A stretch of 64,000 nt of DNA from Escherichia coli (lineage in GTDB: Bacteria; Pseudomonadota; Gammaproteobacteria; Enterobacterales; Enterobacteriaceae). The notes under the pieces are model-generated. The model saw only the letters and a program-made list of their open reading frames with translations. It ran no database searches and was not told the origin of the DNA. Positions 21,884-64,000 of the stretch are shown in pieces. Both the position numbers and the translations under genes were made by a program. Each line of letters opens with the position of its first letter. Within the stretch, counting starts at the first letter, position 1. The stretch is from NCBI RefSeq assembly GCF_050920415.1, contig NZ_CP169309.1. One strand, written 5' to 3'.

Positions 21884-22451
21884 CGATCACGGTTATCTGT
21901 AAGTAATAATTATTACAGTAATGCAAAATACCCCTGGCACAAGTTACATCGTTCATCAGTAAAACTTGTGCCAGATCAAATATAATTCCCCCTCTCTCAC
22001 CGCTGAAAATTAATATCTCTTCGGATGAACGGTGTTTTTAATTTCAAAACGCTAACAAAAGTTAATTAACTATTATGTCGCCCACATTATGTGTATTTTT
22101 ACCCACAAATGGGTAGTTAAGAATAATCTATAAACCTGATGATACCTACCCTGAGAACAAAAATTATACCAATAAGTATCAATAAGATAGCAGCAAACAA
22201 AACATTAACATCTGCGTAGTACAAACTATAAACCCATCGCCAGAGAGTATTTCTCTCTGAAAAAACCGCTTATCACAGTGCATAAATTTGCCGCTGCTTT
22301 AATCAGCCAATATTCACTGTGAGGTATTTACTCAAGCCGGTAACGACCAAACGGATATTTAGTCAAGCTCTGAAAACAGTTCATACAAAACAGAACGTGA
22401 CTGTGATCTATTCAGCAAAAATTTAAATAGGATTATCGCGAGGGTTTACAC
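21884..22451 (+). promoter_or_regulatory. dcuB promoter and long untranslated leader
   Basis: About 570 bp AT-rich non-coding region between dcuR and dcuB; established site of DcuR/FNR control; individual sites not resolved. Confidence 0.4.
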
Positions 22452-25638: not shown

Positions 25639-26289
25639 ATGACCCGCACACTCAAGCCGTTAATTCTTAACACCGGCGCACTGGCGCTAACGTTAATCCT
25701 GATTTATACCGGCATTTCGGCCAATGACAAACTCACCTGGCTGATGGAAGTGACACCGGTGATTATTGTCGTGCCGCTACTGCTTGCCACCGCTAAACGT
25801 TATCCGTTAACGCCGCTGCTCTATACGCTCATTTTCTTTCACGCCATCATCCTGATGGTCGGCGGGCAATACACCTACGCGAAAGTCCCCGTTGGTTTTG
25901 AGGTGCAGGAATGGCTGGGGTTGAGCCGTAATCCGTATGACAAGCTGGGGCATTTTTTCCAGGGGCTGGTGCCTGCACTGGTGGCGCGAGAAATTCTCGT
26001 TCGCGGGATGTACGTGCGCGGACGTAAAATGGTGGCGTTTCTGGTCTGCTGCGTGGCGCTGGCGATAAGCGCGATGTATGAATTAATCGAGTGGTGGGCA
26101 GCGCTGGCAATGGGTCAGGGAGCGGATGATTTTCTCGGTACCCAGGGCGACCAATGGGACACACAATCCGATATGTTCTGCGCGCTGCTTGGTGCATTAA
26201 CTACGGTGATATTCCTTGCTCGCTTTCATTGCCGCCAGCTACGGCGCTATGGCTTAATCACCAGAGCGCCGGAAGCGATTACCTCTTAA
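25639..26289 (+). CDS. yjdF: Inner-membrane protein YjdF (DUF2238-like)
   Basis: Multi-TM ORF in the conserved position next to fumB; stop TAA at 26287-26289 overlaps the melA stop. Confidence 0.7.
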   Translation: MTRTLKPLILNTGALALTLILIYTGISANDKLTWLMEVTPVIIVVPLLLATAKRYPLTPLLYTLIFFHAIILMVGGQYTYAKVPVGFEVQEWLGLSRNPYDKLGHFFQGLVPALVAREILVRGMYVRGRKMVAFLVCCVALAISAMYELIEWWAALAMGQGADDFLGTQGDQWDTQSDMFCALLGALTTVIFLARFHCRQLRRYGLITRAPEAITS

Positions 26290-27641
26290 CGGTGTAACCA
26301 GCCTGGCAGCCAGTCGCCGTGGGCGGCAATCAGGTCGTCAATAAGAGCATAGATTTCATCAATGCCCAGCACGGCAGCGGTATGTGGGTCCATCATCGCG
26401 GCATGGTAAACACGGTCGCGATTTTCTGTGAGAATGGCTTCCGTCAGCAGCGTCTGTACGTTGATATTGGTTTGCATCAGGGCGGCCAGATGCGAAGGTA
26501 GCGTACCGACTTTGGTCGGCTGAATGCCATTAGCATCAACTAAACAGGCCACTTCCACGCAACATCCTTGTGGCAGGTTATCAATCAAACCATCGTTACG
26601 GACGTTGCCATAAATCACACTCGGCTCGCCAGTCCAGATAGCGTTCATGATTGTGCTGGCATATTCCCGTGACGGTTTAATATCAATCCGGGAGGCGTTC
26701 TTATACTCCTCCAGCTCTTTATGCCAGTTTGCCAATTGTTCGACGCAGCGTTTCGGGTACTCATCCAGCGGCACTTTATAACGCTCAATCAAATCCTCAC
26801 GACCAGGCTTAATAAACCACGGTGTGTATTCAGCAAAATGTTCTGACGATTCCGTGACGAAGTAGCCCAGCTTTTTGAACATTTCATAACGCACAATATT
26901 CTGGCAGCGAGTATTGCCATGAATATTCGGCTTCGGTGCCTGCCCTGCGTCATACGCTGCCAGCAGTTCTGGGTAGAGATTCACGTAACTGCCGTCGGCG
27001 GTTTTGCGCTCCAGTTCCAGGTAAAACGCCATATGGTTGATACCCGCGCAACGGTAACGCAACGTAGCTGGGTCGATATTGAGATCACGCGCCAGCTCTT
27101 CCGCCGTTCCCTGCACCGAATGGCACAGCCCTACCTGTTTGATATGCGGATAGCGGGCATACATCGCCCAGGTATTCATCGCCATTGGGTTAACATAGTT
27201 GAGCATAGTGGCATCGGGGCAGACTTCCGTCATGTCCTCGCAAATTTGCCACAGGTGCGGAATGGTACGTAGCGCGCGCATAATACCGCCCGGCCCCAAC
27301 GTATCGGCAATGGTTTGTTCCAGACCGTGGCGCTTACAGACCTCAAAATCAGTCACCGTGCAAGGTTCATAACCGCCAATCTGAAATGCCACTACGACAA
27401 AATCGGCATCCTGTAAGGCTTCTTTCTGTTGGGTGTGGCAGGTGATTTTGCCACTGGCCCCCGCTGAATCCATCAGCTTGCGCACCACAATGTGCGACTC
27501 TTCCAGGCGGATGGGATCAATGTCCATCAGGGCAATATGCGCCGTTTTTAGCGCCTCGCGATGGAACACATCACCAAGAATATTTTTAACGAAAATCGTC
27601 GAACCAGCGCCGATAAATGTAATTTTAGGTGCAGACATCAT
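26286..27641 (-). CDS. melA: Alpha-galactosidase MelA (GH4 family, 451 aa)
   Basis: MMSAPKITFIGAGSTIFVKNILGDV... N-terminal Rossmann GAGS motif typical of NAD/Mn-dependent family 4 glycosidases; divergent from melR. Confidence 0.93.
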   Translation of the reverse strand: MMSAPKITFIGAGSTIFVKNILGDVFHREALKTAHIALMDIDPIRLEESHIVVRKLMDSAGASGKITCHTQQKEALQDADFVVVAFQIGGYEPCTVTDFEVCKRHGLEQTIADTLGPGGIMRALRTIPHLWQICEDMTEVCPDATMLNYVNPMAMNTWAMYARYPHIKQVGLCHSVQGTAEELARDLNIDPATLRYRCAGINHMAFYLELERKTADGSYVNLYPELLAAYDAGQAPKPNIHGNTRCQNIVRYEMFKKLGYFVTESSEHFAEYTPWFIKPGREDLIERYKVPLDEYPKRCVEQLANWHKELEEYKNASRIDIKPSREYASTIMNAIWTGEPSVIYGNVRNDGLIDNLPQGCCVEVACLVDANGIQPTKVGTLPSHLAALMQTNINVQTLLTEAILTENRDRVYHAAMMDPHTAAVLGIDEIYALIDDLIAAHGDWLPGWLHR

Positions 27642-36278: not shown

Positions 36279-37370
36279 ATGCGTTTTCTGCGCCGACCAA
36301 TATCGCTGCGCCAACGGCTGATATTGACCATTGGGGCCATTTTGTTGGTGTTTGAGTTGATCAGCGTCTTCTGGCTATGGCATGAAAGTACCGAGCAGAT
36401 TCAGCTGTTTGAGCAGGCGCTACGCGACAATCGTAACAACGATCGCCACATCATGCGTGAGATCCGCGAGGCGGTCGCCAGCCTGATTGTCCCTGGCGTC
36501 TTTATGGTCAGCCTGACGCTATTTATCTGCTATCAGGCGGTACGCCGCATCACCCGCCCGCTGGCGGAGCTGCAAAAAGAGCTGGAAGCGCGCACCGCCG
36601 ACAACTTAACGCCCATTGCCATTCACAGCGCCACCCTCGAAATCGAAGCGGTGGTTTCAGCGTTAAACGATCTGGTCAGTCGCCTGACCAACACGCTGGA
36701 TAACGAAAGGTTGTTTACCGCTGACGTCGCGCACGAACTGCGAACGCCACTGGCGGGGGTGCGTTTGCATCTGGAACTGCTGGCGAAAACGCATCACATT
36801 GATGTAGCACCGTTAGTGGCACGACTTGATCAGATGATGGAGAGTGTCTCCCAGCTACTGCAACTGGCGCGTGCCGGACAGTCATTTTCTTCCGGTAATT
36901 ATCAACATGTAAAACTGCTGGAAGATGTCATTCTCCCCTCGTATGACGAACTCAGTACCATGCTCGACCAGCGCCAGCAAACCCTGCTATTGCCAGAGAG
37001 CGCCGCCGACATCATCGTTCAGGGTGATGCAACCCTGCTGCGGATGTTATTGCGAAACCTGGTAGAAAATGCCCATCGTTACAGCCCGCAAGGCAGCAAC
37101 ATTATGATTAAGCTGCAAGACGATGGCGGAGCGGTCATGGCCGTTGAAGATGAAGGACCGGGTATTGATGAGAGTAAATGCGGGGAGTTGAGTAAAGCGT
37201 TTGTACGAATGGACAGCCGTTATGGCGGGATTGGTCTGGGGTTAAGTATTGTCAGCCGCATTACACAGTTGCATCACGGGCAGTTTTTCCTGCAAAACCG
37301 GCAAGAGACTTCCGGCACGCGGGCCTGGGTACGGCTGAAGAAAGATCAGTACGTGGCAAACCAGATATAA
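36279..37370 (+). CDS. basS: Sensor histidine kinase BasS/PmrB (363 aa)
   Basis: HisKA (DVAHELRTPLAG) and HATPase domains; ATG at 36279; ORF track begins three codons earlier (36270). Confidence 0.9.
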   Translation: MRFLRRPISLRQRLILTIGAILLVFELISVFWLWHESTEQIQLFEQALRDNRNNDRHIMREIREAVASLIVPGVFMVSLTLFICYQAVRRITRPLAELQKELEARTADNLTPIAIHSATLEIEAVVSALNDLVSRLTNTLDNERLFTADVAHELRTPLAGVRLHLELLAKTHHIDVAPLVARLDQMMESVSQLLQLARAGQSFSSGNYQHVKLLEDVILPSYDELSTMLDQRQQTLLLPESAADIIVQGDATLLRMLLRNLVENAHRYSPQGSNIMIKLQDDGGAVMAVEDEGPGIDESKCGELSKAFVRMDSRYGGIGLGLSIVSRITQLHHGQFFLQNRQETSGTRAWVRLKKDQYVANQI

Positions 37371-37439
37371 AGAAAGCTGCTGACCACCAGCACGCTGAAC
37401 ACGGTAGTTAAACTTTCATAAACACGGTTTTTCATTGCA

Positions 37440-37465
37440 CTCTCCTCCGTTAACCTGGAGGAGAG
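37440..37465. terminator. Stem-loop between convergent basS and proP
   Basis: Inverted repeat ctcctcc / ggaggag between convergent 3' ends. Confidence 0.45.
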
Positions 37466-37548
37466 TATGCGTGTCAGAGATTAAGTGAACCTTAAGAGTC
37501 AATTGTTGGCCTGATGAGACAGCATCCCATCAGGCAATTCGTTTCAGC

Positions 37549-43187: not shown

Positions 43188-43335
43188 CGGTAGGCCGGAT
43201 AAGGCGCTCGCGCCGCATCCGGCTACGGTGCCGACTGCCTGATGCGACGCTCGCGCGTCTTATCAGGCCTACAAATTCTCGCACCATCCGGCAACGGTGC
43301 CTAATGCGACGCTTACCGAGTCTTATCAGCCCCCG
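43188..43335. repeat. REP / BIME cluster (about three REP units in alternating orientation)
   Basis: Units gtaggccggataaggcgctcgcgccgcatccggc, gcctgatgcgacgctcgcgcgtcttatcaggcctac and a third partial unit match the E. coli REP consensus. Confidence 0.75.
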
Positions 43336-58362: not shown

Positions 58363-59394
58363 ATGGAAAGTACGCCGAAAAAAGCTCCTCGCAGTAAATT
58401 CCCTGCTCTGTTAGTGGTTGCGTTGGCGCTGGTTGCCCTTGTTTTCGTTATCTGGCGCGTAGACAGTGCGCCATCAACTAATGACGCCTACGCGTCAGCA
58501 GATACCATTGATGTGGTGCCGGAAGTCAGCGGTCGCATTGTAGAACTGGCGGTCACCGACAACCAGGCGGTGAAACAGGGCGATTTGCTGTTCCGCATCG
58601 ACCCGCGCCCGTACGAAGCCAATCTGGCGAAAGCCGAAGCCTCCCTCGCGGCGCTGGATAAGCAAATTATGCTCACCCAGCGTAGCGTTGACGCACAACA
58701 GTTTGGTGCCGACTCGGTTAATGCCACGGTAGAAAAAGCCCGTGCCGCCGCGAAACAGGCCAGTGATACATTACGCCGCACCGAGCCATTACTGAAAGAA
58801 GGTTTCGTCTCAGCGGAAGACGTTGACCGTGCAAGAACGGCGCAGCGCGCCGCAGAAGCCGATCTTAACGCCGTATTGTTGCAGGCGCAGTCAGCCGCCA
58901 GCGCCGTCAGCGGCGTGGATGCGCTGGTGGCGCAACGTGCGGCAGTGGAAGCGGATATTGCGTTGACGAAACTGCATCTGGAAATGGCGACCGTTCGCGC
59001 GCCGTTTGATGGCCGGGTCATTTCCCTCAAAACCTCCGTCGGGCAATTTGCTTCTGCCATGCGCCCTATTTTCACCCTAATCGACACCCGTCACTGGTAC
59101 GTGATCGCCAACTTCCGCGAAACCGATCTGAAAAATATTCGCTCGGGTACACCCGCAACGATTCGCCTGATGAGCGACAGCGGCAAAACCTTCGCAGGTA
59201 AAGTGGATTCGATTGGCTACGGCGTGCTACCGGATGACGGCGGCCTGGTGCTGGGCGGCCTGCCGAAAGTGTCTCGTTCTATTAACTGGGTCCGCGTTGC
59301 CCAGCGTTTTCCGGTCAAAATCATGGTTGAAAAACCTGACCCGGAAATGTTCCGCATCGGCGCTTCGGCAGTCGCTAATCTTGAGCCGCAATAA
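58363..59394 (+). CDS. mdtN: Membrane-fusion (periplasmic adaptor) protein MdtN (343 aa)
   Basis: N-terminal TM anchor, coiled-coil and beta-barrel adaptor domains; first gene of mdtNOP. Confidence 0.88.
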   Translation: MESTPKKAPRSKFPALLVVALALVALVFVIWRVDSAPSTNDAYASADTIDVVPEVSGRIVELAVTDNQAVKQGDLLFRIDPRPYEANLAKAEASLAALDKQIMLTQRSVDAQQFGADSVNATVEKARAAAKQASDTLRRTEPLLKEGFVSAEDVDRARTAQRAAEADLNAVLLQAQSAASAVSGVDALVAQRAAVEADIALTKLHLEMATVRAPFDGRVISLKTSVGQFASAMRPIFTLIDTRHWYVIANFRETDLKNIRSGTPATIRLMSDSGKTFAGKVDSIGYGVLPDDGGLVLGGLPKVSRSINWVRVAQRFPVKIMVEKPDPEMFRIGASAVANLEPQ

Positions 59395-61445
59395 TGAGCG
59401 CGCTCAACTCCCTGCCATTACCGGTGGTCAGGCTGCTGGCGTTCTTTCATGAAGAGTTAAGCGAGCGGCGACCAGGCCGCGTGCCGCAGACTATGCAACT
59501 CTGGGTAGGCTGCTTGCTGGTGATTCTGATCTCGATGACTTTTGAGATCCCTTTTGTGGCGTTATCACTGGCAGTGCTGTTTTACGGTATTCAGTCGAAC
59601 GCGTTTTACACCAAATTTGTCGCGATCTTGTTTGTGGTCGCCACGATGCTGGAAATCGCCAGCCTGTTTTTGATCTACAAATGGTCATATGGCGAACCGT
59701 TGATCCGATTGATCATTGCCGGACCGATCCTGATGGGCTGTATGTTTTTGATGCGCACCCATCGGTTGGGGCTGGTTTTTTTCGCCGTCGCCATTGTCGC
59801 CATTTACGGGCAAACATTCCCCGCCATGCTCGACTATCCGGAAGTGGTCGTGCGCTTAACGCTGTGGTGTATCGTTGTCGGCCTCTACCCGACGTTATTG
59901 ATGACGTTAATCGGCGTGCTGTGGTTTCCCAGCCGCGCTATCACGCAGATGCATCAGGTGCTTAATGATCGGCTTGATGATGCCATTAGCCACCTGACGG
60001 ACAGCCTCGCACCGCTACCCGAAACGCGGATTGAAAGAGAGGCGCTGGCGCTGCAAAAACTCAATGTCTTTTGCCTCGCGGACGATGCCAACTGGCGAAC
60101 TCAGAGCGCATGGTGGCAAAGCTGCGTGGCAACGGTAACCTACATTTACTCGACGCTGAATCGCTACGATCCCACCTCTTTTGCTGATTCTCAGGCAATT
60201 ATTGAATTTCGGCAAAAATTAGCCTCAGAAATCAACAAACTGCAGCATGCCATTGCCGAAGGTCAGTGCTGGCAAAGCGACTGGCGGATCACTGAAAGTG
60301 AAGCGATGGCGGCACGGGAATGTAACCTGGAGAATATCTGCCAGACATTGTTGCAACTGGGTCAGATGGACCCGAATACACCGCCAACGCCCGCCGCCAA
60401 ACCGCCATCAATGGTCGCCGATGCTTTTACCAATCCAGACTATATGCGCTACGCGGTAAAAACGCTGCTCGCCTGTTTGATCTGTTACACCTTCTACAGC
60501 GGCGTGGACTGGGAAGGCATTCACACCTGTATGCTGACCTGCGTGATCGTCGCTAACCCCAATGTCGGTTCGTCGTACCAGAAGATGGTGTTGCGTTTTG
60601 GCGGGGCTTTTTGCGGCGCAATTCTGGCGCTGTTATTCACGCTACTGGTCATGCCCTGGCTGGACAATATTGTCGAATTGCTATTTGTGCTGGCACCGAT
60701 TTTCCTGTTGGGCGCATGGATTGCCACCAGCTCTGAACGCTCTTCTTATATCGGCACACAGATGGTGGTCACCTTCGCGCTCGCCACGCTCGAAAACGTT
60801 TTTGGCCCGGTGTACGACCTGGTGGAAATTCGCGATCGCGCCCTGGGTATCATCATTGGTACCGTGGTGTCCGCGGTGATTTACACCTTTGTCTGGCCTG
60901 AAAGTGAAGCGCGCACACTGCCGCAAAAACTGGCTGGCGCGCTGGGTATGTTGAGTAAAGTAATGCGGATCCCACGCCAGCAGGAAGTCACGGCTCTGCG
61001 CACTTATCTGCAAATTCGTATAGGTCTGCATGCGGCGTTTAATGCCTGTGAACAGATGTGCCAACGCGTGGCGCTGGAGCGTCAACTGGACAGCGAAGAA
61101 CGCGCTTTACTGATTGAACGTTCGCAAACGGTTATTCGTCAGGGCCGCGATATTCTTCACGCCTGGGATGCAACCTGGAACTCGGCGCAGGCGCTGGATA
61201 ACGCACTACAGCCGGACAGAGCAGGCCTGTTTGCCGACGCACTGGAGAAATACGCCGCCGGCCTGGCAAGCGCACTCAGCCGTTCTCCTCAAATTACACT
61301 TGAAGAGACACCCGCCTCGCAGGCCATCCTGCCGACCTTATTAAAACAGGAGCAATACGTCTGCCAGCTTTTTGCCCGCTTGCCAGACTGGACTGCCCCG
61401 GCATTAACGCCCGCCACGGAACAGGCACAAGGAGCCACGCAATGA
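59394..61445 (+). CDS. mdtO: Aromatic-acid-exporter-family inner-membrane efflux protein MdtO (683 aa)
   Basis: Two membrane domains separated by soluble regions (FUSC/AaeB-like); start overlaps mdtN stop (TAATG). Confidence 0.88.
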   Translation: MSALNSLPLPVVRLLAFFHEELSERRPGRVPQTMQLWVGCLLVILISMTFEIPFVALSLAVLFYGIQSNAFYTKFVAILFVVATMLEIASLFLIYKWSYGEPLIRLIIAGPILMGCMFLMRTHRLGLVFFAVAIVAIYGQTFPAMLDYPEVVVRLTLWCIVVGLYPTLLMTLIGVLWFPSRAITQMHQVLNDRLDDAISHLTDSLAPLPETRIEREALALQKLNVFCLADDANWRTQSAWWQSCVATVTYIYSTLNRYDPTSFADSQAIIEFRQKLASEINKLQHAIAEGQCWQSDWRITESEAMAARECNLENICQTLLQLGQMDPNTPPTPAAKPPSMVADAFTNPDYMRYAVKTLLACLICYTFYSGVDWEGIHTCMLTCVIVANPNVGSSYQKMVLRFGGAFCGAILALLFTLLVMPWLDNIVELLFVLAPIFLLGAWIATSSERSSYIGTQMVVTFALATLENVFGPVYDLVEIRDRALGIIIGTVVSAVIYTFVWPESEARTLPQKLAGALGMLSKVMRIPRQQEVTALRTYLQIRIGLHAAFNACEQMCQRVALERQLDSEERALLIERSQTVIRQGRDILHAWDATWNSAQALDNALQPDRAGLFADALEKYAAGLASALSRSPQITLEETPASQAILPTLLKQEQYVCQLFARLPDWTAPALTPATEQAQGATQ

Positions 61446-62908
61446 TCAATCGTCAACTTTCACGCCTGCTGTTATGCAGCATTCTCGGCAGCACGACGCT
61501 GATTTCGGGCTGTGCCCTGGTACGTAAGGATTCTGCCCCGCATCAACAGCTCAAACCGGAACAAATCAAACTGGCCGATGATTTTCATCTCGCCAGCTCC
61601 GGCTGGCCACAGGCGCAGTGGTGGAAACAACTCAATGATCCGCAGTTGGATGCGCTGATCCAACGGACGCTAAGTGGTTCACATACCCTCGCCGAAGCGA
61701 AACTGCGGGAAGAAAAAGCGCAGTCGCAGGCGGATTTGTTAGATGCCGGTTCACAATTACAGGTGGCAGCGTTAGGGATGCTAAACCGCCAACGTGTCTC
61801 GACGAACGGCTTTTTAAGCCCTTATGCTATGGATGCGCCAGCACTGGGTATGGACGGGCCGTACTATACGGAAGCCACAGTCGGTTTGTTTGCCGGACTG
61901 GATCTTGATTTGTGGGGTGTGCATCGCTCAGCGGTTGCCGCCGCCATTGGCGCGCATAATGCAGCGCTGGCAGAAACCGCAGCAGTAGAGCTATCGCTGA
62001 CCACGGGCGTAGCGCAGCTTTATTACAGTATGCAGGCCAGCTATCAGATGCTCGATCTGTTAGAACAAACACGCGATGTGATTGATTACGCGGTGAAAGC
62101 GCACCAGAGTAAAGTGGCGCACGGTCTGGAAGCGCAAGTGCCTTTCCACGGCGCGCGGGCACAGATTCTGGCGGTCGATAAACAAATTGCTGCCGTTAAA
62201 GGGCAAATCACCGAAACGCGAGAATCTCTGCGTGCATTGATTGGCGCAGGAGCCAGCGATATGCCGGAGATCAAACCGGTGGCATTACCGCAAGTCCAGA
62301 CCGGCATTCCAGCGACACTCTCTTATGAGTTGCTCGCCAGACGCCCGGATCTGCAAGCCATGCGCTGGTATGTTCAGGCGTCATTAGATCAGGTGGATTC
62401 CGCGCGGGCGCTGTTCTATCCGAGCTTTGATATCAAAGCGTTTTTCGGCCTGGATTCTATCCACCTGGATACCTTATTCAAAAAAACCAGTCGCCAGTTC
62501 AACTTTATCCCAGGTCTGAAATTGCCGCTGTTTGACGGTGGACGGTTGAATGCCAATCTCGAAGGCACTCGCGCCGCCAGCAACATGATGATTGAACGTT
62601 ACAACCAGTCAGTGCTAAATGCGGTGCGCGACGTTGCAGTCAACGGCACGCGTCTGCAAACGCTCAACGACGAGCGGGAGATGCAGGCAGAACGCGTAGA
62701 AGCAACGCGCTTCACCCAGCGCGCTGCCGACGCCGCCTACCAACGCGGCTTAACCAGTCGCTTACAGGCCACCGAAGCCCAGTTGCCGGTGCTTGCCGAA
62801 GAGATGTCATTACTGATGCTGGACAGCCGCCGGGTGATCCAAAGCATTCAGTTGATGAAATCGCTGGGTGGCGGGTATCAGGCGGCTCCCGTCGTCGAGA
62901 AAAAATAA
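61442..62908 (+). CDS. mdtP: Outer-membrane efflux factor MdtP (TolC-like, 488 aa)
   Basis: Lipoprotein signal (LISGCAL) plus OEP repeats; overlaps mdtO stop by 4 bp. Confidence 0.88.
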   Translation: MINRQLSRLLLCSILGSTTLISGCALVRKDSAPHQQLKPEQIKLADDFHLASSGWPQAQWWKQLNDPQLDALIQRTLSGSHTLAEAKLREEKAQSQADLLDAGSQLQVAALGMLNRQRVSTNGFLSPYAMDAPALGMDGPYYTEATVGLFAGLDLDLWGVHRSAVAAAIGAHNAALAETAAVELSLTTGVAQLYYSMQASYQMLDLLEQTRDVIDYAVKAHQSKVAHGLEAQVPFHGARAQILAVDKQIAAVKGQITETRESLRALIGAGASDMPEIKPVALPQVQTGIPATLSYELLARRPDLQAMRWYVQASLDQVDSARALFYPSFDIKAFFGLDSIHLDTLFKKTSRQFNFIPGLKLPLFDGGRLNANLEGTRAASNMMIERYNQSVLNAVRDVAVNGTRLQTLNDEREMQAERVEATRFTQRAADAAYQRGLTSRLQATEAQLPVLAEEMSLLMLDSRRVIQSIQLMKSLGGGYQAAPVVEKK

Positions 62909-63037
62909 AATGTCAGCCGCGTGATGGCTGTCACGCGGTATTTCGTTTCGTCACGTCAAAACTGACGACAGCCTGTTTTTCGTCAGAGTTTTGAATAAAT
63001 AGTGCCCGTAATATCAGGGAATGCCCCCAAATAAAAT

Positions 63038-63054
63038 GTGGCATAAAAGATGCA
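63038..63054 (+). promoter_or_regulatory. Sigma54-type promoter upstream of fdhF
   Basis: TGGCAT-N5-ATGCA with GG and GC spaced as in the -24/-12 sigma54 consensus, about 55 bp upstream of the fdhF ATG. Confidence 0.55.
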
Positions 63055-63105
63055 TACTGTAGTCGAGAGCGCGTATGCGTGATTTGATTAACTGGAGCGA
63101 GACCG

Positions 63106-64000
63106 ATGAAAAAAGTCGTCACGGTTTGCCCCTATTGCGCATCAGGTTGCAAAATCAACCTGGTCGTCGATAACGGCAAAATCGTCCGGGCGGAGGCAGC
63201 GCAGGGGAAAACCAACCAGGGTACCCTGTGTCTGAAGGGTTATTATGGCTGGGACTTCATTAACGATACCCAGATCCTGACCCCGCGCCTGAAAACCCCC
63301 ATGATCCGTCGCCAGCGTGGCGGCAAACTCGAACCTGTTTCCTGGGATGAGGCACTGAATTACGTTGCCGAGCGCCTGAGCGCCATCAAAGAGAAGTACG
63401 GTCCGGATGCCATCCAGACGACCGGCTCCTCGCGTGGTACGGGTAACGAAACCAACTATGTAATGCAAAAATTTGCGCGCGCCGTTATTGGTACCAATAA
63501 CGTTGACTGCTGCGCTCGTGTCTGACACGGCCCATCGGTTGCAGGTCTGCACCAATCGGTCGGTAATGGCGCAATGAGCAATGCTATTAACGAAATTGAT
63601 AATACCGATTTAGTGTTCGTTTTCGGGTACAACCCGGCGGATTCCCACCCTATCGTGGCGAATCACGTAATTAACGCTAAACGTAACGGGGCGAAAATTA
63701 TCGTCTGCGATCCGCGCAAAATTGAAACCGCGCGCATTGCTGACATGCACATTGCACTGAAAAACGGCTCGAATATCGCGCTGTTGAATGCGATGGGCCA
63801 TGTCATTATTGAAGAAAATCTGTACGACAAAGCGTTCGTCGCTTCCCGTACAGAAGGCTTTGAAGAGTATCGTAAAATCGTTGAAGGCTACACGCCGGAG
63901 TCGGTTGAAGATATCACCGGCGTTAGCGCCAGTGAGATTCGTCAGGCAGCGCGGATGTATGCCCAGGCGGAAAGCGCAGCCATTCTGTGGGGCATGGGTG
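63106..64000 (+). CDS. fdhF: Formate dehydrogenase H selenoprotein FdhF, 5' portion (truncated by window end); codon 140 is an in-frame TGA read as selenocysteine
   Basis: MKKVVTVCPYCASGCKINLVVDNGKIVRAEAAQGKTNQGTLCLKGYYGWDF... molybdopterin oxidoreductase N-terminus; frame continues unbroken after TGA at 63523-63525 to the window end (HGPSVAGLHQSVGNGAMSNAINEIDNTDLVFVFGYNPADSHPIV...). Confidence 0.93.
63526..63570 (+). other. SECIS stem-loop directing selenocysteine insertion at the fdhF UGA
   Basis: Immediately 3' of the TGA: cacggcccatcggttgcaggtctgcaccaatcggtcggtaatggc, matching the recalled fdhF SECIS hairpin. Confidence 0.8.

Follow-up and report, generated by a model that had tools for sequence, protein, structure and literature searches.

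In-frame UGA codon 140 and the SECIS hairpin of Escherichia coli fdhF as a native selenocysteine recoding site

The TGA at 63523-63525 and the hairpin that follows it are almost certainly the native selenocysteine (Sec) recoding site of Escherichia coli fdhF. The DNA analyzed in this study is a stretch of 64,000 nucleotides of E. coli chromosome, referred to here as the window, and fdhF begins close to its end. The fdhF UGA140 and its SECIS are the founding example of selenocysteine recoding in bacteria and are in routine use as a reporter and as an engineering scaffold. The fdhF product is formate dehydrogenase H, a molybdopterin/[4Fe-4S] selenoenzyme, and the hairpin is the fdhF mRNA hairpin of Zinoni, Heider and Boeck, which is Rfam family RF01988 and, in its minimal form, the SECIS of Liu et al. 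1998. The UGA140 and SECIS of fdhF are already known, and nothing about them is new. The features on which the analysis rests are as follows.

63106..64000, + strand: 5' part of fdhF, codons 1-298 of 715; the gene runs past the window end
63523..63525, + strand: UGA codon 140, an in-frame TGA aligned with Sec140 of PDB 1aa6 and read as selenocysteine, the Mo ligand of formate dehydrogenase H
63518..63572, + strand: full SECIS element, Rfam SECIS_2 (RF01988), model positions 1-55 of 55
63525..63564, + strand: minimum free energy (MFE) hairpin of 15 pairs, starting from the A of the UGA, with a lower stem of 63525-63535 paired with 63555-63564
63537..63553, + strand: apical 17-nt stem-loop GGUUGCAGGUCUGCACC, nt 15-31, the minimal SelB-binding SECIS

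The fdhF reading frame across codon 140

The ATG at 63106 opens a reading frame that a mechanical ORF list ends after 139 aa (63106..63525), and an earlier note made from the window had placed the TGA that cuts it at the same coordinates, 63523-63525. That note also held that the same frame continues uninterrupted to the end of the window. This was borne out, as the TGA is the single stop in the 298 codons translated from 63106-63999 and the frame stays open to base 63999. It had further been considered that the frame downstream of the TGA might be unlike formate dehydrogenase H. However, when the 298 codons of the window were compared with E. coli formate dehydrogenase H (PDB 1aa6, 1fdo, 2iv2), 297 of 298 residues were identical (E = 1e-200), and the TGA codon 140 was aligned to the 'X' of PDB 1aa6 that corresponds to Sec140.

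The segment CCARV*HGPSVAGL, with residue 140 at the asterisk, matches 1aa6 residue for residue and holds the Mo-ligand motif CARV-U-HGPS. The N-terminal Cys cluster for the [4Fe-4S] center (CPYCASGC...C, residues 8-15 and 42) is also present and is likewise identical to 1aa6 at each residue. The fragment in the window matched NCBIfam TIGR01591 with a score of 476 bits (profile positions 1-287), and the full-length fdhF allele of NZ_CP169399.1 scored 1088.7 bits against an equivalog cut-off of 666.25. When homologues of solved structure were aligned, as the earlier note had proposed, the position of codon 140 was found to be Sec in some and Cys in others (Sec in 9t1s_L; Cys in 7qv7_S, 7bkb_D and 9wxb_B).

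The sole mismatch over the 298 residues is at codon 289 (63970-63972), which encodes Glu in the window and is Lys in PDB 1aa6.

Conservation of the UGA and annotation of fdhF

A different explanation for the TGA is that it is a true nonsense mutation, so that fdhF is a pseudogene or a truncated gene and the frame downstream is a recent relic. This would agree with the mechanical ORF list, which ends at 139 aa, but it is at odds with the conservation of the site. Of the 5420 matching E. coli records, 5419 differ by at most 1 base over the 101 nt around the UGA (identity of at least 99%), and the flanking 1.1 kb are only 95-99% identical in 4056 of those 5420. In the closest public genome, NZ_CP169399.1, which aligns colinearly with the window, with 3 mismatches over about 48.7 kb, and is identical to it over window positions 58900-64000, fdhF has 715 codons with one internal TGA, and the remaining 575 codons are intact. 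Additionally, TGA recurs at the codon-140 position in 109 distinct homologous sequences from many phyla, and in the crystallized enzyme the aligned residue is Sec140. Taken with the homologues, a nonsense mutation is so improbable that it can be set aside, and the pseudogene reading was rejected; most E. coli carry TGA, not a sense codon, at codon 140.

The RefSeq/PGAP annotation of NZ_CP169399.1 has fdhF as one 2148-nt CDS across the TGA, between mdtP and yjcO. The earlier concern that a naive gene caller would mis-annotate fdhF is thus justified for the mechanical ORF list but not for RefSeq, which already handles the recoding. Stop-to-stop ORF tracks split selenoprotein genes, and recognition of the UGA together with its SECIS avoids a false pseudogene call for fdhF.

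Anatomy of the SECIS element

A gathering-level Rfam scan of the whole window recovered SECIS_2 (RF01988) with 87.1 bits, above the gathering score of 70 for this family (E = 4e-19), although this score is not independent evidence because the seed of the family probably holds the fdhF SECIS sequence itself or near-identical ones. The sister family SECIS_3 reached 35.8 bits in the window, below its gathering score of 63. In the SECIS_2 model, an outer helix of 63518-63522 with 63568-63572 spans the UGA.

The MFE fold of the RNA from 63523-63565 is one hairpin of -14.9 kcal/mol with the base pair A3-U42 (numbered from the UGA) and an apical GGUC loop. The hairpin therefore pairs the A of the UGA itself, in keeping with the earlier statement that a hairpin directly follows the TGA, and the 45-nt string quoted with that statement is exactly 63526-63570. 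Within the apical stem-loop, the GGUC loop (which includes G23 and U24) lies at 63544-63547 and the bulged U at 63539/63540; it is U18 that is unpaired in the MFE fold, which is equivalent to U17. The spacer between the UGA and the apical stem-loop is 11 nt (nt 4-14).

Window positions 63523-63564 are identical to the 42-nt enteric fdhF UGA and SECIS printed in PMC4489274. This identity and the full-length SECIS_2 match confirm that the hairpin is the bacterial fdhF SECIS, as the earlier note had suggested. PMC4489274 names the bulged U and GGUC loop as the known determinants of function, with citation of Liu 1998 and Sandman 2003, and PMC4513850 describes UGA140 as followed by a SECIS over aa 141-153. 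Compared with the E. coli fdhF SECIS, the window has the same codon 140, GGUC loop, bulged U and 11-nt spacing, and the element itself is without differences. The homologous molybdopterin FDH alpha subunits of the same organism, fdnG and fdoG (FDH-N, 1kqf, and FDH-O), share the recoding mechanism but are separate genes elsewhere in the genome with SECIS sequences of their own.

Folding stability and synonymous recoding

The free energy of the hairpin is not above chance, and stability is not the trait that distinguishes it. When compared with dinucleotide shuffles, the MFE of the 43-mer 63523-63565 had a z-score of -1.28, with 18 of 200 shuffles equally low, and the 61-mer 63520-63580, the fold check put forward in the earlier note, had a z-score of 0.0. 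Because the free energy lies within the shuffle range, a test for a stable hairpin alone would be inconclusive. As the shuffle z-scores were non-significant, synonymous recoding and Sec/Cys controls were used as the nulls for structure in a coding region.

The lack of a significantly low MFE is what would be seen if the hairpin were an accident of coding the active-site peptide HGPSVAGLHQSVG, with the UGA read independently of any SECIS, for example by near-cognate tRNA-Trp. The conservation of the VAGL peptide in Cys-containing enzymes as well points the same way. However, this does not agree with the outcome of synonymously recoding the peptide HGPSVAGLHQSVGN, for which 3000 samples each were drawn with uniform and with usage-weighted codon choice. 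All 15 of the 15 native pairs were regained in just 1 of 3000 recodings with uniform choice and in 5 of 3000 with usage-weighted choice, and the six apical pairs together with the GGUC loop were regained in 9/3000 and 80/3000, respectively. An MFE as low as the native one was more frequent (145/3000 uniform and 376/3000 usage-weighted, approximately 5-12%), and the native hairpin is only marginally better in energy than its synonymous recodings. It is the specific structure that, given the encoded peptide, exceeds chance.

Comparison of Sec and Cys homologues

For the Sec set, GTDB genomes were scanned for NNVD-x-CAR-x followed by TGA, which gave 109 distinct downstream sequences, and for the Cys set, metagenomes were scanned for the same motif followed by TGY, which gave 115 distinct sequences. 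The comparison was restricted to genes that encode H..[ST]V[AVT]GL, a peptide motif common to both sets, leaving 106 TGA genes and 83 TGY genes. At least 5 consecutive loop-flanking pairs at the fixed position were found in 82% of the TGA genes but only 8% of the TGY genes, and the GGTCT loop in 89% and 18%, respectively, in sets that were drawn from different collections and whose members are phylogenetically non-independent. The mean local MFE was -10.2 kcal/mol for TGA genes compared to -5.8 kcal/mol for TGY genes (Mann-Whitney p = 2e-13), with the Cys set (all 115 sequences) being slightly higher in G+C than the TGA set.

A closer group is formed by the HGP-class, or enteric-type, Sec orthologues. 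In 14 of 16 distinct orthologues of this class, among them those of Citrobacter, Enterobacter, Kluyvera, Leclercia, Superficieibacter, Budvicia, Arsenophonus and E. albertii, all 6 of 6 apical pairs are present and the wobble bases 15, 18, 21, 24, 27 and 30 are invariant, whereas 16 Cys homologues, 13 of which encode HGPSVAGL, have 1-4 of the 6 apical pairs and vary freely at the wobble sites. Equal hairpin frequencies in TGA and TGY homologues were tested for and were not observed, and the explanation of the hairpin as a by-product of coding was rejected. It also conflicts with the loss of read-through in the absence of the SECIS (PMC4513850), and altogether it is very improbable. These data show that the hairpin is kept by selection beyond the needs of the peptide and is linked to the UGA across homologues. 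The control with TGA and Cys codons also means that structure-specific tests detect a SECIS where free-energy z-scores fail.

Cys-type FdhF proteins (for example the HDCR FdhF of Thermoanaerobacter kivui, 7qv7_S, and enteric-type HGPSVAGL proteins of loci L146-L229) belong to the same enzyme family and share the active-site peptide, but they have TGY in place of TGA and no conserved hairpin. A Raoultella Cys-type fdhF without the hairpin is described in PMC4489274.

The non-enteric FDH SECIS (similar to SECIS_3, RF01989; Deltaproteobacteria, Chloroflexi and Firmicutes; loci L002-L121) occupies the same V-A-G-L codons, equally far from the UGA, and the GGUCU loop bases are shared in 96 of 109 sequences. 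It differs from the E. coli element in its pairing register, having a 5-nt loop on a continuous helix of 7-8 bp (nt 14-34 after the TGA) and no bulged U. Its wobble positions show compensatory changes: the wobble-wobble pair 21:27 is C-G in 63 sequences, A-U in 20 and U-A in 2, with 8 non-pairs, and the pair 18:30 is G-C in 61, C-G in 12, U-A in 9 and A-U in 4.

The lower stem is also conserved among Sec genes, with 7-9 of 9 pairs in 15 of the 16 HGP-class orthologues and 5/9 in the remaining one (Budvicia, L060), compared to 4-6/9 in the Cys homologues. One reading of this is that the lower stem (63525-63535/63555-63564) and the outer helix are conserved, even though the 17-nt apical element reportedly suffices, because they have a further role beyond SelB recruitment, such as RF2 occlusion or ribosome pacing or spacing. 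The outer helix is part of the Rfam SECIS_2 consensus, and PMC4513850 discusses refolding of the SECIS between ribosomes and a pile-up upstream of the UGA, both of which would be consistent with such a role. However, several orthologues carry changes at positions 12 and 33 that disrupt or weaken pairs, and Liu 1998, as cited in PMC4489274, found the lower stem to be dispensable when the spacing is kept. The conservation of the lower stem may also be partly phylogenetic, given how closely related the enteric sequences are. A further role is unlikely, though less so than the other alternatives considered here. If it were true, selection in vivo would act on more than the 'minimal' 17-nt SECIS conveys.

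Some members of both sets depart from the general pattern. Among the 115 distinct TGY homologues (loci L122-L241), 8 still form 6 or more consecutive pairs where the SECIS would lie, e.g. TGTCACGCTTCGACAGTGGCCGGTCTGGCCACAAC, and 15 have the GGTCT loop. The hairpins of these 8 sequences may be relics of a SECIS that persisted after Sec was replaced by Cys. Two Sec-type sequences, L065 (Cricetibacter, Pasteurellaceae) and L101, have 2 of 6 apical pairs broken in the E. coli register (A19.C28 and U17.U29) and a local MFE of only -0.4 kcal/mol; by inspection of nt 15-31 after the TGA, an alternative A18-U29 pair would retain the bulged U17 and the GGUC loop. One contig (L003) bears two TGA-containing FDH genes of the non-enteric SECIS type.

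Recoding mechanism and Sec machinery

For SelB binding and actual Sec insertion at UGA140, we draw on literature for the identical sequence or infer them, and the steps below are proposed on that footing. During translation of fdhF, the 40-nt hairpin 3' of UGA140 would expose the GGUC loop at its apex together with the bulged U, and the C-terminal domain of the specialized elongation factor SelB would bind this surface. SelB-GTP carrying Sec-tRNA(Sec), the selC product with anticodon UCA, would then be held near the A site as the UGA arrives, and Sec would be inserted in place of chain termination by RF2. The Sec-tRNA itself is made by SerRS and then by SelA with selenophosphate supplied by SelD. 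Ribosomes that do not recode would be expected to release a fragment of 139 aa. In the finished enzyme, Sec140 ligates the bis-MGD molybdenum of formate dehydrogenase H, the formate-oxidizing part of the formate-hydrogen lyase complex.

This scheme follows PMC4513850, in which SelB binds the SECIS 3' of UGA140 and competes with RF2 by bringing Sec-tRNA(Sec) to the A site. The same study reports that recoding of fdhF UGA140 in vivo is 30-40%, needs the SECIS and depends on the selenium supply.

A search for sel genes and tRNA-Sec found none within the 64-kb window, where the sole tRNA is tRNA-Phe. Across 5426 complete E. coli genomes, selC was found in 5424, and selAB and selD in 5425 each. Given this presence across the species, the genome from which the window comes presumably has the Sec machinery as well.

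Upstream region of fdhF and other features of the window

Two signals were read from the sequence upstream of fdhF.

63039..63054, + strand: sigma-54-type -24/-12 element TGGCAT-N5-ATGCA (GG-N10-GC)
63094..63097, + strand: Shine-Dalgarno-like GGAG, 8 nt before the ATG at 63106

Control of fdhF depends on sigma-54, FhlA and formate. The putative sigma-54-type element, of a kind for which looser patterns would turn up by chance roughly once in each window, together with the finding of no sigma-70-like site in 62850-63150, would fit this control. A terminator-like hairpin with a T-run is located after mdtP, at 62916-62939.

Other observations concern regions of the window further from fdhF. In the dcuR-dcuB interval, NZ_CP169399.1 carries an IS2 that is absent from the window (21984-21988), and the 5-bp alignment overlap at this site resembles a target-site duplication. 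The gene melB is absent from window positions 25639-27641, where yjdF (25639-26289, + strand) and melA (26286-27641, - strand) are convergent and overlap by 4 nt. This junction of yjdF and melA is contiguous in 1264 of 5413 E. coli genomes and at least 99% identical in only 2 genomes; in the others its two halves lie apart, as expected when melB is present. Two matches at the Rfam gathering level were found to small RNA families. The enterobacterial sRNA STnc630 matched at 37339-37504 (- strand, 181.6 bits) and overlaps pmrR and the 3' part of pmrB, and naRNA4/CssrE matched at 43193-43269 (+ strand, 99.2 bits) between yjdM and yjdN.
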